DNA of 64,000 nucleotides from a virus (lineage: Duplodnaviria; Heunggongvirae; Uroviricota; Caudoviricetes), in IMG/VR virus record IMGVR_UViG_2737471833_000002; one strand, given 5' to 3'. Below, piece by piece: positions 55,601-61,600 of this stretch (its first letter is position 1; every line of letters begins with the position of its first letter). Position numbers: made by a program.

Positions 55601-58600
55601 TCAACCAGATCCTGGCTGCCGAACGCACCAATATTTTCACCGCGAGAGTGCAGATAAGCGATGGACGGACGCAGGCCGAAATCAAACTGGTATTGAGCAA
55701 CAGCTTCAAAGTTTTTCGCCTTGTTCGCGATAAAGTCATCACCGAAGACAGTCATATTCTGAGTTTCAGAATAAGTTGCAGCCAGGTAAATGTTATTTGC
55801 GTCATATTTCAGGCCAGTAGCCCATACTTCAGCAGTTTTACCAGAAGCATTCAGAGGATCCTTTTTAGCATAGGATACCTGCCCATCAGTACGATCAGAT
55901 TTTGCATAGGTTGCACCAACGCCAAATCCTTCATAATCGTAAGTAGCAGACAGACCAAAGCCATCACCATTAGATTCAACTACGTCACGGCCTTTCCAGT
56001 TGTTCACTTTTGCAGCACTATCATTTTTACCTTGATACTGCAAAGCAAAGTTCAGACCATCAACCAGGCCGAAGAAATCATTGTTACGGTAGGTGGCTAC
56101 GCCAGTAGCACGCTGGGTCATAAATACATCGGTCTGAGTCCAGGTATCTCCACCAAACTCAGGCAGCACGTCAGTCCAAGCGCCAATATCATAAGCTACA
56201 CCATAGTTGCGACCATAGTCGATTGAACCATAATCAGCAAAACGGAGGCCAGCAAATGCAAGACGAGTTTGATCTTTATCAGAGCCCTCAGATTCAGTAC
56301 GGTTACCTTTAAATTCGTACTCCCACTGACCAAAACCGGTTAACTGGTCATTAATCTGAGTTTCACCTTTGAATCCCAGACGAGCATAAGTCTTATCTCC
56401 GTCATCACTAGCTGAAGAAGAGAAGTAATGTTCTGCGTTAACTTTGCCGTACAGATCCAGTTTATTACCGTCTTTGTTGTAGATTTCAGCTGCTTGCGCA
56501 GACATTGCCATCAGGACAGATGCTGCAACCGCAGAGAGTGCCACTGTGATTTTTTTCATTTTTTTTGCCCTTTAGATTGAACTTTTCAGTAGAAAAGAAG
56601 TCACTGCGGACAAATGTTTATCTTTTTTGGATTCGTGTTTCAAGTTTTGCAAATAAAAATCAAGGTATTTTTGTGATCAAAATCACAAATAATAGCCTTG
56701 AAAACCCAATGGACTATTAGAAAAAACTCAATTCACAGAATAAAAATTGACAAAATAGATCAAAAAACAATCAAAAATAAGCACAAAAGACAAACAATTA
56801 AATTATCACAAAAATAATAACTGTCAAAAATAGATAGCCTGTTAATTAACAGGGCTTTAATGGATGTAGACTTGAAATCTACTTAAAAATTAGAATCAAA
56901 TTAATTACTGCCGATTGGGTATTAAATTGAATCTATATTGTGAGAGTTAAAGACGATGTGTTTTAGTTATAAATGTTATTCCCTAAAATGGAGCGGTCTC
57001 ATCGAATCCTGATTAATAACGAGCTAAGCTAATTCATTTTAGTATGTGTATATCTTTACCCTCTGAATATGCAATAAAGAAGAGATATTAAACAATATGT
57101 AGCTTCAGGATTGACTCTGGAAGAATTAAAAGATCGACTAAAGTGTTCAATATGTGGTGAGCGAAACGCAAAAATTAATTTTTTTTGATCTAACATATTA
57201 GGTAACGGCTTGCTTCCATAACCTAAAGCAAGCCACTACGCGTTTACTTTAAGTACACAATTAACATATCAGAACAGATTATTTTTGCACAATCAGGGAG
57301 TTAATATACGATCTGGTCTACATGATCACCAAAATCATCATCGTCGTCGTCATCATCGCCACCATCTACTGCTGGCCAATCAACAAACCAGCCAGCGTAA
57401 AGATGCAGCGTTCGGAGAACATCACTTGCGGGAGCATCAAGGGTGTTAACGAATCCCATATAGCTATTGGGATTTGCCCCAGCTATGGCTTCAGCGATCA
57501 TGTCCTCGGTAATGTCACCGGAGATAATGCTTAAACGCCCGGAAACTTCTTCATTATCATCAAATTCGATAATGGCATCTCCGCCTAATGGCGCTGCGAT
57601 TTTAATCTGCATTATTTAGCTCCTTTGCCACACCTAATAACAGTTCCAGCAATCCGTCACCATTCATCAGTGATGCGGCAGCGGCCTCTTTGTCATGATA
57701 CAACTGAAGAGCCATAGAGAATACTTCCGTTGCTGACGTTTTGGAAATAGTCGGTGATTTCTGCCGAATTTTCCCGGTGTTACTTACTGAGGCTGGCGGG
57801 TATACCTTCGCCATATAAATATTACTCAATCGAGATCTGAAGCACCATTCAGGCTTGCCACGCCCACCGATATTAACGAAAGATGGCTTATCCCCTTCAA
57901 CATTGGCCTTCAGGAATGACCGGGCTTTCTCTAACAAACCAGGGTTACTGTACTCAAGATGATGACCCAGCTCGTGCCACAGTGCACTTGCATTTTCATC
58001 GTTCAAATTGACAGCAACAACACCATTAAGATTTGCATATGCCCTTCCCTGGTGGTGAACCACCTTTGATAAGGTCGAAATTTTACCGCCGGTCAGGCGA
58101 TAAATATCAGCAAGTTCCTTGCGCAGGTCTATCCCACCATTCTGTCCAGCGCGGGCTTCTTCCACTTCTTCCGTGATAAAAGAGTCGGCCCACTCAAGAG
58201 CTTTTTCTTCAGATACGGATGAGTTTGCGATCGCACTGTTCATGGCAGATAACACTTTCTCGTGGACCGAACCCATTCTTCGCTGATTCATTTGCCAGCG
58301 TGTCTGCGGGTTATATGAGAATCGCTTAAGTAGTTGGTCAAGCTGCTCAAATTCTTCTTCACTGACATACCTTTTAGCCTCACCAATAATGCCAGGGAGA
58401 ATATTGCCGTTAGGATTAAACGCTCGCGAAAGGAAGAGTTTCAGCGCCCCCATGCCCTCCGATGCTTCAATATCACCAATAACCCGGTTAACAATGGCCG
58501 CACTCTTCGGATTAGCATCCGCCAACGCTCTGGCTACAATTTGCAGGGACGATACGACCTCACGCTGCATATCAGTCCTGATCTCATCAATAAACTCTGG

Positions 58601-61600
58601 CGTTATGCCGTGCTCTTTAAGGATATCCCTGCCTTCCGCCGTTACCCCATCGATATCACCGACATGTTTATTAACCCGACTTTGCAATGCCTTAAATGCC
58701 TTCAGAATTCCACGGGCATCATCCGCTTTAATAACGGCCTTCCTGAATGCTGGCAAGAAGTCTGAGTTAACCTCATTTTGTTGATCGGCCCACTGAATGG
58801 AGGCTTCTTTCATCTCGTCCAGAGTCAGATCACCCAACGCGGTATGGTCTGTGAATATGAGCGACAACCTCTGAACCATTTCTGCCAATGGTGATGCCGA
58901 ATGCGCCGCGCTAAGGAATGCTTTCACCCTGGTTGGGCGAATGGAAAACCAGTCAATAGCTGGTGGCATATCTCCGTTTTTTATCGCCTGCGCTATCTCG
59001 TCAAAGCCATCGCGCCCAAGGGAGGATGCGTGATTTAACAAGCCGCGAAGTAACGAATTGCTGATACCGAATAATCGGCACCATTTATTCACGTCGGCAA
59101 CAGGCATTCGAACAAAATGCGCAAGCACTTGTACAAGCTGTTCATCCTGGGGATCTGTTCGGGAAAGCAGCCTGATCAGATGAATAATGTCTTTGATGCC
59201 GGATGCCCGATGTAATAGCAAGCTGGTATATGGCGCAACACCGTTGTATCCGCTGCTGGTGGCCATAACTATCTGATCGTTTAAACTCATCCCTGTTACG
59301 CCTTATACCGCCTCTTTAATGTTGGCGGCTATCCATGCCGCCGTGTGCTGTTTAACCTGGTCCAGGTCGATGTATGTGCCAACATATTGACTTAAGTCCT
59401 GCAACGTACCGATAAATGCATCGGTGCTCTGATCGACGAATTTATCAGCCAGGAAATCAGCAACCAGTTTTGGCACACCATCATGCACCGAAGGTTGTTT
59501 TTCCTCGCCACTACCGCTGCCGGATGCGCCGTACCCCATCTGTTGCATGATCTGGTCAATTTCATCGCTGATATCCAGCAACTCCATGCCACTCGCGGTC
59601 GCCGCTTTGGACATCAGAGCATCCAACTTATCGCTGAGATCCATTAACTCAATAGCTGATAGTGTCATGCCACTACCCCCGCTTTCTGGATTGCTACCAG
59701 CAGATCAGCCAGGTGGCGAGCAGCGCCATTAACCAGCTCTTCGTTTTCCTCAAAACGCCCGGCAGCCTGAAGGGCTGCAATCGCTTCCCGGACATTACCC
59801 CGGGCATTACGGATCTCCGCCATGTCAGTGCTTTGCATATCCATCACGCTATTGAGATATTCAATGGCTTTATTAGCCTCTGCATCTGCTTCGCTAACCG
59901 TTTCATCAGGCTGTGCCGGGGCCGGTTCTGGCTGAGTAATCTCACCGACTTCGGCCTGCAATGCATTGATCATGCTCTGCACCATTTTCTCGGTGCCAGC
60001 GCCCCCCGGAAACGCAATATTGGGGAAAGTTTTTTGAAACTGAGTTTTCAGCATTACGCGGAACTCGTCTGGTGAGCTGGTGGCCAGCTCCAGAGCTTTT
60101 TGTGCATATTTGCCAAACGGACCATTAGTAAGTGTCTTCGCCAGGAAGTCGAAAGAATCCTCGCGAGGCAATAACTTCAGGTCGTACTCACTCATTTGCT
60201 GATCAGAAAGCGGGGTATCGTAAGTAACAATGCCGTAGCGCGCGTATTCATAATACGGGTCACCTTTATCAGGGCGCGGCAGAATTGCTTTGTTACCTTC
60301 AGGTATCGCGCCAGGGGCCGCCGGACGCATTTGCAGGGCATATCGATATGCGCCTACAGAGACTTCTGGTTCAGGCGAAGAGCTGCCGGTATCCTCCACT
60401 GGTTCAGGTTCGACGTTTTCCGGTTTAGGTTCTTCTGGTTGGACCAGATATTCCGATACATTACCCGCTTTATAGGCTTTAAACAGCTTGCCGATCGCAT
60501 CTGTCATGTCCACACCCTGTATGGATTTAGCCTTGATCATGTACACGCTGCCATCCGGATCGGTTAACTGGATATACCCTTCGCCGTCCCCAATGAATTG
60601 CTTCATTAATGCACCATTACTGAGCGTCGCTTCCCCGTCCATATGCATACGATTTTTGATACTGGCAAGGCGATCCGTCAGCGCGAGAGAGTGCCCACCA
60701 GTCATCCCCGCTGGAGCAATGGTATCGCGCCCACCAGTGCGATTGAGCTGATCAATCTCCGCCTGCAAACGCTCATTTTCTTGATAAAGAGAATCCGCTT
60801 CCGAAGCAACAGCGTTAATTTTCTGCTCCAGATCTGCCTTCTGGCCTTCTACCGCTGCCACCTGATCCGCGAGGTCGCTCATGGCATCCTCTTTCTGGTC
60901 ACTGTCAGCCTGTAGTTGGGTTATTTCATCAACCAGGGCTTTTTTCTTCTTCTGCGCACGCTGGAATTTTGCCGAGTTTTTCTCTGCAAGGTTGGCAAGT
61001 TTCATGGTGACCTGCGCCAGCGTCATATCACGTCCACTCATCGGAGCAACGGTGTGAGTAACGTCTTTTTTATTCAGTAAGAACTGGAAAGCAACCAGCG
61101 TATCGCTATTGGTGATCCGGTTCTCCGCTGTCGGGCTATGAAACAGAATGCTGATAGTCTGACCATCACTGAGCGGGATAATGGCTGGCAGGACCGGCAG
61201 CCCGTTAACGTTACGTGCCCGGCCAATTTCAGCGCCGCCGATCGCTCGCGCGCCGCTCTGGGCCACATCCCCCGTTTTATCACTCCCCGCAGAGATTCCG
61301 GTACCATTCAGCTTCTGGTTCAATGCCCGGACAAATGCCTGCATGGTCCGGTGTAACTGCAAACGAGTAGAACTAATCGCCTCCAGTAAATCCGTAGCAC
61401 ACCAGTGGATCGGCGTGTCATAGAAGAACGTAGCCTCGATTTCCTCCAGGGTGTTGGATTCCGTCATCAGATAGCGGTCCTCTCCGGCCATTAATGCGCG
61501 ATATTCATCATCAGTCACTGGCGGGGGAAGTACGTCAAGCCCAGGCTTGATCGTCACCCCTTTATTGATATTGAACTGTTCCATGTTAATTTCCTGCTTT

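Follow-up and report, generated by a model that had tools for sequence, protein, structure and literature searches.

What occupies the ddrB position of a P1-type antirestriction operon when the protein encoded there is far shorter than the DdrB of phage P1? The question is raised by a 64,000-nucleotide (nt) stretch of DNA, referred to here as the window, from a virus of the class Caudoviricetes (IMG/VR record IMGVR_UViG_2737471833_000002), in which a P1-type late and antirestriction block extends from 54 to 64 kb. Downstream of ddrA this block carries an open reading frame (ORF) of 562 codons, overlapped by a second of 103 codons, and an initial annotation made from the sequence alone left it open whether the two represent a split DdrB, a variant DdrB or a different head-associated antirestriction component. 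The explanation favoured here, and regarded as very probable, is that the window carries a natural, effector-less DdrB allele in a P1-type darA operon together with an ordinary hxr gene. The operon and its genes are known; what is new is an undescribed yet widespread in-frame ddrB allele that lacks precisely the ParB module.

The short ddrB allele and its neighbour hxr

The features on which the argument turns are the following.

57602-59290, minus strand: short ddrB allele (562 amino acids, 61.9 kDa), identified by alignment to P1 and phi456 DdrB and by phrog_2299
59255-59290, minus strand: first 12 codons of short ddrB, MSLNDQIVMATS, homologous to codons 1-12 of long DdrB
57605-58291, minus strand: zincin-like metallopeptidase (MPTase) domain, residues 334-562, the C-terminal part of short DdrB
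57953-57979, minus strand: WHELGHHLE, residues 438-446 (HExxH = H439-E440-x-x-H443), identical in P1 and phi456
57301-57612, minus strand: hxr (103 amino acids, isoelectric point 4.05), overlapping the ddrB stop by 11 nt
57334-57357, minus strand: eight-Asp run of Hxr, residues 86-93, in GAT/GAC codons, within a disordered acidic tail

Homology confirms that both ORFs downstream of ddrA are real genes, at 97-98% identity for the larger product and 97-100% for the smaller. P1 DdrB (P1_gp022, YP_006491.1, PHROG 2299; NC_005856 24542-27529, annotated as "possible metallopeptidase") has 995 residues, so that the size of about 980 given in the initial annotation was essentially right. In the protein alignment, window residues 1-12 correspond to P1 residues 1-12 and window residues 13-562 to P1 residues 446-995, the latter 550 residues being 97-98% identical to P1 and phi456 DdrB and separated from the first 12 by a single 433-column gap. 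The phrog_2299 profile agrees, its positions 442-995 matching window residues 10-562 with 1058 bits. At the DNA level 1299 bp are gone from the window gene relative to P1 and phi456, equivalent to P1 codons 13-445, and the deletion is therefore in frame. Its junction lies between 59255 and 59254, the native start codon and the first 12 codons being retained, and the deleted 433 amino acids were not found anywhere in the 64-kb window by tblastn. The heads of the long proteins, MSLSDQVVMATS in P1 and MSLREQVAMATS in Cronobacter phage JK004, are homologous to that of the window protein and share with it the pattern MSLxxQxxMATS.

A megablast search of phage genomes with positions 57000-59700 returned 19 P1-like records at 96.7-99.0% identity, 14 of which cover most of the query in a two-piece match, about 4.0 kb of subject answering to 2.7 kb of query. 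The Salmonella phage SJ46 (NC_031129.1; piece L003, 8387-9595) carries insQ, an IS605-family transposase gene, between ddrA and ddrB, by which its match is split; RCS47 and vB_EcoM-813R1 have the same split, and this accounts for the two separate matches that each of the three gave.

Gene order, hdf-darA-ddrA-ORF562-hxr, is identical in the window, P1 and phi456, the two ORFs making up the distal part of a darA (defence against restriction) operon. The P1 annotation places hxr at 24244-24552 and an antisense ORF, iddB, at 26577-26975, followed by ddrA, and phi456 is arranged in the same way. The window allele thus shares with P1 ddrB its operon position, start, first 12 codons and 11-nt overlap with hxr, and differs from it in lacking both residues 13-445 and antisense iddB, with a product of 62 kDa as against 109 kDa. 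By alignment, the 562-residue protein is a P1 DdrB allele from which the ParB-like front module has been cut out in frame. The proposal of a variant DdrB therefore stands, in the form of an in-frame loss of P1 codons 13-445, and the proposal of a different head component falls, the retained part being 97-98% identical to P1 DdrB. The sole HExxH of the 562-residue protein lies in WHELGHHLE, the zinc-metallopeptidase-like motif already pointed out in the initial annotation, and the block around it is identical in the window protein and in P1 and phi456 DdrB, although the alignment of P1 DdrB with the shorter protein is not full-length.

The idea of a split gene fares less well. Aligned to P1 DdrB, the two ORFs together do not cover it, and the smaller one is, by sequence, the ordinary P1 gene hxr and not a DdrB fragment: its product shows 100% identity to the Hxr of phi456 and 97% to that of P1 (P1_gp021, PHROG 2292), and it matches phrog_2292 with an E value of 4e-60. 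The 11-nt overlap of ddrB and hxr, suspected of hiding a frameshift at 57590-57620, is the same in P1, phi456 and the window. Given this shared overlap and the identity of the smaller ORF as hxr, there is no frameshift, no split gene and no reason to resequence 57590-57620, and that reading was rejected.

Hxr belongs to a family of proteins of about 100 residues confined to P1-like elements, with a conserved core VLRS...GW.V.WP.V.G, and P1-like elements of Klebsiella and Cronobacter have orthologues, 36-61% identical, at the corresponding place. Its tail is acidic throughout the family and variable in length, reading DEDDDDD in P1 and up to DEDDDDDDDD in others; one extra Asp codon and a Glu-to-Asp change give the window protein eight consecutive aspartates in place of the P1 sequence. 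This run had been described as the end of the protein, and it is present, at residues 86-93, but ten further residues (FGDHVDQIVY) follow it. The gene ends the antirestriction operon, and the product has 24 Asp and Glu against 3 Lys and Arg, with an alpha/beta core in the predicted structure and a tail (residues 85-103) for which the predicted local distance difference test (pLDDT) score is below 50. Neither a match to a helix-turn-helix family nor a helix-turn-helix in the predicted fold was found, leaving the P1 label "homolog of Xre; possible repressor" unsupported, and on the predicted model Hxr is not demonstrably an Xre-type repressor.

The module removed and the module retained

The excised block comprises the whole ddrB-type ParB domain, PF18763, found at P1 DdrB residues 36-167 (E = 2e-39), and an extension of about 270 residues, the DNA of the block also carrying antisense iddB; a Pfam scan of the window 562-residue protein gave no PF18763 match. 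By tblastn, the deleted part is matched as one unit, from residue 15 to about residue 420, at 33-41% identity in phages of Acinetobacter, Aeromonas, Pseudoalteromonas and Alcaligenes, and these matches are mostly annotated as virion or polyvalent proteins.

The retained part has a different distribution. A HMMER search with the 562-residue protein found 325 representatives at E<=1e-3, among which only residues from about 335 to 560 are widely conserved, residues 1-330 being confined to P1-like DdrB. Ten of these matches were scanned with Pfam: the five of at least 724 residues contain the ddrB-ParB domain, and the five of 220-535 residues do not. In a 23-sequence alignment of the conserved domain (22-44% identity to the window protein), R416, H439, E440, H443, E446, E481, Y492, E522 and S525 are invariant, and all catalytic-motif residues are intact in the short allele. 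As for the glutamate that would serve as third zinc ligand, E522 begins helix 190-196 of the structural model, and E446 and E481 are invariant as well.

The HExxH domain has no Pfam or NCBIfam match at threshold, homologues giving scattered sub-threshold matches to Reprolysin and ATLF, and nothing significant emerged from sequence and profile searches of the PDB; its assignment came from structure-based comparison alone. Comparison values were 6.0-6.7 for Certhrax and anthrax lethal factor, 6.7 for MtfA and 5.1 for Wss1, LTA4H and ERAP1. The nearest solved folds are those of the M34-type lethal factor and Pro-Pro endopeptidases and of MtfA. The DdrB C-terminal domain is, accordingly, confidently predicted from the model to have a zincin fold resembling that of anthrax lethal factor and the Pro-Pro endopeptidases. 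This agrees with earlier work (Iyer et al. 2017, PMC5512222) that counts the P1 DdrB C-terminus among the zincin-like "MPTase" domains found in polyvalent proteins and relates these domains to lethal factor.

Each of the two modules is also found without the other. The ddrB homologue of phage D6 (YP_009914702.1; NC_050154.1, piece L013, 3459-4823) consists of the N-terminal module alone, 454 residues in length and 66% identical to P1 residues 13-445, and its end, ...FEPTSVG*, aligns to P1 ...FESVSGG(445), exactly where the window protein resumes. No C-terminal module was detectable in phage D6 and no hxr at its ddrB locus. D6 ddrB is thus the complementary half to the window allele, having the ParB module and no metallopeptidase module.

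The opposite arrangement is native to P1-like elements of Klebsiella. A K. pneumoniae contig (GCA_051686805.1, DBJOEX010000021.1) has, in order, cin, lydA, lydB, hdf (200 amino acids), darA (682), ddrA (119), a 558-residue protein, a 99-residue Hxr-like protein, ssb and lyz. Identity between the 558-residue protein (P0021-P0024), which lacks a ParB domain, and the window protein is 34-35%, with 97% of the query aligned. Like the window allele, it is a C-terminal module only, lies between ddrA-like and hxr-like genes and has the conserved peptidase motifs; unlike the window allele, it begins MKSEEMQ..., and its boundary therefore does not reflect the same event as the window deletion. The first codons of this Klebsiella gene (ATGAAAAGTGAAGAAATGCAG, MKSEEMQ; piece L009, 5378-5400) are collinear with the tail of the JK004 N-terminal module (CTGGAAAGCGAAGGGATGCAG, LESEGMQ; residues 427-433), 10 of 15 nt being alike when the codons are read by eye. 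This resemblance hints that the short gene of Klebsiella may itself have arisen when the N-terminal module was lost in an older, separate event, although it may also be ancestral.

The third arrangement is a fusion of unlike halves. DdrB of Cronobacter phage JK004 (piece L012, 3465-6461), with 998 residues, joins an N-terminal module that is about 90% P1-like to a C-terminal module of the Klebsiella type, about 35% identical to that of P1, and this chimeric protein points to module exchange between P1-like lineages. From the D6, Klebsiella and JK004 arrangements it follows that the N-terminal module has been exchanged or retained independently of the C-terminal one.

Public data also contain other in-frame rearrangements at the ddrB locus, represented by P0015 (693 amino acids, 74 contigs), P0017 (537 amino acids) and P0007 (642 amino acids). 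One of them is a fusion of DarA (residues 1 to about 345) to the C-terminal 350 or so residues of DdrB, with loss of the remainder of darA, the whole of ddrA and the greater part of ddrB; the other two are internal ddrB deletions in which the ParB and peptidase domains are both kept.

Circulation and condition of the short allele

The distribution of the allele was surveyed with a 601-nt probe across the junction, a copy being counted as short-type when the junction was spanned in one piece. Among plasmids in PLSDB, 477 records matched and 21 were short (E. coli, E. albertii and E. fergusonii; four at 100%); among 5426 complete E. coli genomes, 475 matched and 9 were short; and IMG/VR contigs comprised at least 79 of long type and 8 of short type. 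Two metagenome contigs also carry the short-allele junction. The junction, ACCAGC followed by AGCGGATACAACGG, is identical in every copy examined, from Escherichia plasmids to 10 IMG/VR and metagenome contigs, and the short allele is a minority form making up about 2-9% of P1-like elements. A 611-member cluster of a 425-residue "ddrB domain protein" was considered as a count of the short allele and rejected, its example (GCA_025613785.1, ABIRSW010000100.1) being a long allele truncated where its contig stops.

The fixed or almost fixed differences between short and long alleles are concentrated near the junction, no more than about 35 nt from it, at 59267-59285 and 59234-59253. Elsewhere the alleles are intermingled: the 3' part of the window gene is 99.55% identical to the phi456 long allele as against 97.9-98.3% to other short alleles, and long alleles share 45 of the 87 sites that are polymorphic among short ones. 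As read from these sequences, the gene away from the junction is a mosaic, the pattern left when an indel allele of some age recombines with long alleles.

The reading frame is well preserved. A native ATG and 562 uninterrupted codons are found in 14 of 15 complete copies (the window and 13 others), representing 10 distinct nucleotide alleles. The exception, frameshifted, is that of E. fergusonii pTB91P2, where neighbouring genes in the same record are broken too, which suggests sequence errors. Pairwise ratios of nonsynonymous to synonymous polymorphism (pN/pS) among short alleles are 0.08-0.23, and the 42 polymorphisms private to short alleles, unseen in 49 distinct long alleles, divide into 21 synonymous and 21 nonsynonymous, against an expectation of about 23% synonymous (P = 1.2e-4). 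The absence of stop codons is weak evidence alone (P = 0.18 for 42 changes, 0.03 for 87). On sequence evidence, then, the short allele does not display the marks of a pseudogene, whether frameshift, premature stop, lost start or relaxed selection, recombination with long alleles being the caveat, and the deletion is natural and circulating and not obviously decaying.

Several points nevertheless weigh against a functional, effector-less allele. Not one of the 19 P1-like phage genome records carries the short form. Neither a long parent allele bearing the junction-flank signature nor a deletion mechanism (microhomology or other) was found; the scans for the parent, by exact pattern, took the 5' signature to metagenome contigs and IMG/VR and the 3' signature to IMG/VR, and returned only short alleles. 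RefSeq, through the Prokaryotic Genome Annotation Pipeline (PGAP), calls the short ddrB a pseudogene, "incomplete; missing N-terminus" (NZ_CP122864.1, piece L024, 3003-4664). Since 45 of the 87 sites are shared with long alleles, the signal of purifying selection may be partly imported by recombination. In P1 ddrB is non-essential, its knock-down leaving plating on a permissive host unaffected (PMC10695390), and loss of function could therefore be tolerated. The retained module offers little to go on over the approximately 320 residues between the junction and the peptidase domain, where the sole match is to LPD5, below threshold (E = 0.005). Finally, it is an N-terminal fragment that is predicted to be the packaged 76-kDa species of P1 DdrB (PMC5512222), and if the N-terminal half is what is packaged, the short protein would deliver little.

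Public calls of the short gene are inconsistent. Against the RefSeq pseudogene stands a GenBank record, CP063732.1 (piece L004, 2503-3780), in which a 425-residue "ddrB domain protein" is called from an internal Met138, and neither record uses the intact 562-codon ORF.

The RefSeq call amounts to the view that short ddrB is dead, a neutral or slightly deleterious deletion decaying in a non-essential accessory gene, and this has a modest but real chance of being right. The PGAP flag, the harmlessness of the ddrB knock-down to P1 plating on a permissive host (PMC10695390), the minority status of the allele and its absence from isolated phages, and the frameshifted pTB91P2 copy all speak for it. 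They are met by an in-frame deletion that kept the native start, by 562 codons maintained in those 14 of 15 copies across 10 alleles and three Escherichia species, by the low pN/pS and the private synonymous excess, by catalytic-motif residues that are all intact, by a C-module-only orthologue that is native in Klebsiella P1-like plasmids, and, for pTB91P2 itself, by broken neighbours suggestive of sequence errors. On balance, the sequence data make it rather likely that the short DdrB protein is functional in some way.

An open frame might also be kept merely so that ribosomes reach the hxr start, by translational coupling through the ATGCAGATTAA overlap, the polypeptide itself being functionless. 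The 11-nt ddrB/hxr overlap is indeed present in every lineage examined, and P0007, P0015 and P0017 are likewise in-frame deletions keeping the ddrB 3' end; those variants, however, were found with a C-terminal query, with out-of-frame events under-sampled, and coupling alone would not constrain amino acid replacements, yet pN/pS is about 0.2. This explanation is accordingly improbable. Slightly less probable still is that the short form is ancestral and the long DdrB of P1 arose by insertion of a ParB cassette, as the native C-module-only genes of Klebsiella, the junction in JK004 of an N-terminal module to a very different C-terminal module, and the concentration of short/long substitutions no more than about 35 nt from the junction, which an indel polymorphism of long standing would be expected to show, might be taken to indicate. 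The window allele opens with the 12 codons of the long proteins (P1, JK004), whereas the Klebsiella gene opens MKSEEMQ..., and outside the junction it is 97-99.5% identical to long alleles and nested in E. coli P1-type diversity. Because its first 12 codons are shared with long genes and not with the Klebsiella short gene, the window allele is read as a deletion derivative. An assembly or sequencing artefact, or a frameshift dividing one gene into ORFs of 562 and 103 codons, has nothing but the size discrepancy in its favour and can be dismissed in the face of an identical junction in upwards of 30 independent assemblies, produced by different laboratories on different platforms, a 103-codon ORF identified as hxr, which overlaps ddrB in the same way in P1, and a missing 433-residue segment that is nowhere in the window.

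A proposed cargo-less DdrB in the P1-type block

The genes around the short allele are listed here.

63421-63981, plus strand: cin, followed in the listed order by two holin-like ORFs and then lydB
61586-62197, minus strand: hdf (203 amino acids), Pfam DarA_N E = 1.3e-21, placed as in P1
59665-61584, minus strand: darA (639 amino acids), Pfam DarA_N E = 1.7e-42 and DarA_C E = 2e-17
59303-59668, minus strand: ddrA (121 amino acids), directly upstream of the 562-codon ORF
55447-56559, minus strand: porin gene, Pfam Porin_1; ssb and lyz are listed after it
44142-50909, minus strand: intact 2255-codon ORF in the P1 darB position, assigned by position and size only

The 2255-codon ORF adjoins a divergent ORF pair placed as prt/pro, and the syntenic Klebsiella locus encodes a 2254-residue product with N6_Mtase and helicase Pfam matches.

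On the far side of hxr, the porin (370 residues, OmpC/NmpC-type, Porin_1 E = 1e-147) takes the place of the isaA-IS1-isaB segment of P1. Its identity is 95.4% to P7 nmpC and 99.5% to the phi456/JL22 protein, as against about 82% for lambdoid-phage porins, and it is a known phage-borne porin moron. Between it and hxr, 56560-57300 is about 740 bp of non-coding, AT-rich sequence (GC 0.30), where P1 has isaB; the promoter- or terminator-like matches in it are all weak.

A table in PMC9024508 lists P1 DdrB as a head protein, with 39 peptides and 59.5% coverage, that "aids DarB addition to capsid", and according to PMC5512222 it is processed to 76 kDa before packaging, autoprocessing by the MPTase domain to the packaged form being a prediction of the same paper. 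According to PMC12810830, Dar proteins enter the procapsid sequentially, after Hdf and DarA, and the capsid-targeting signal of DarB lies within its first 30 residues (PMC9024508). The supplement to PMC9024508 gives no peptide-level coverage of DdrB and so cannot tell which half is packaged.

These observations can be accommodated if long DdrB is a two-module polyvalent head protein. Its ParB-like N-terminal module would be the predicted cargo effector, delivered with the DNA, and its C-terminal module, made up of the P1-specific segment of about 320 residues and the peptidase, would dock into an internal head complex dependent on Hdf, DarA and DdrA, the peptidase performing or undergoing the processing of DdrB. 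The window element would then have shed the effector, and the 62-kDa remainder is most likely still translated directly after ddrA. By analogy with the C-terminal module that stands alone in Klebsiella P1-like plasmids, short DdrB could act as an internal component of head and Dar assembly that helps to load DarB. Because hdf, darA, ddrA and the 2255-codon ORF in the darB position are all intact, the Dar machine is probably assembled with a cargo-less DdrB. Given the position of the DarB signal in its first 30 residues, retention of the first 12 codons of DdrB may, speculatively, be meaningful. That short DdrB still supports DarB loading has, from the sequence comparisons, a chance just short of even. 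The wider proposal, that the ParB-like module is a detachable cassette gained and shed by P1-like phage-plasmids under selection, leaving a fully functional DdrB, "adaptor plus peptidase only", by which DarB would still be loaded, is offered tentatively and is doubtful as it stands.

The short allele supports the view of DdrB as a fusion of two modules whose halves also occur alone. If the cassette proposal were true, shedding of the module might allow escape from a host or rival defence triggered by the injected ParB-like protein, or might retune the set of restriction systems evaded, and D6 (N-terminal module only), Klebsiella and the window (C-terminal module only) and P1 and JK004 (fused) would represent alternative, adaptive states of a single antirestriction device in two parts. 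Of the Dar components DdrB is the least understood, and the N-only protein of D6, the C-only proteins of the window and Klebsiella and the swapped fusion of JK004 are natural separation-of-function forms, so that a comparison of their virion content and of plating on EcoA, EcoB and EcoK hosts would assign functions to the two modules.

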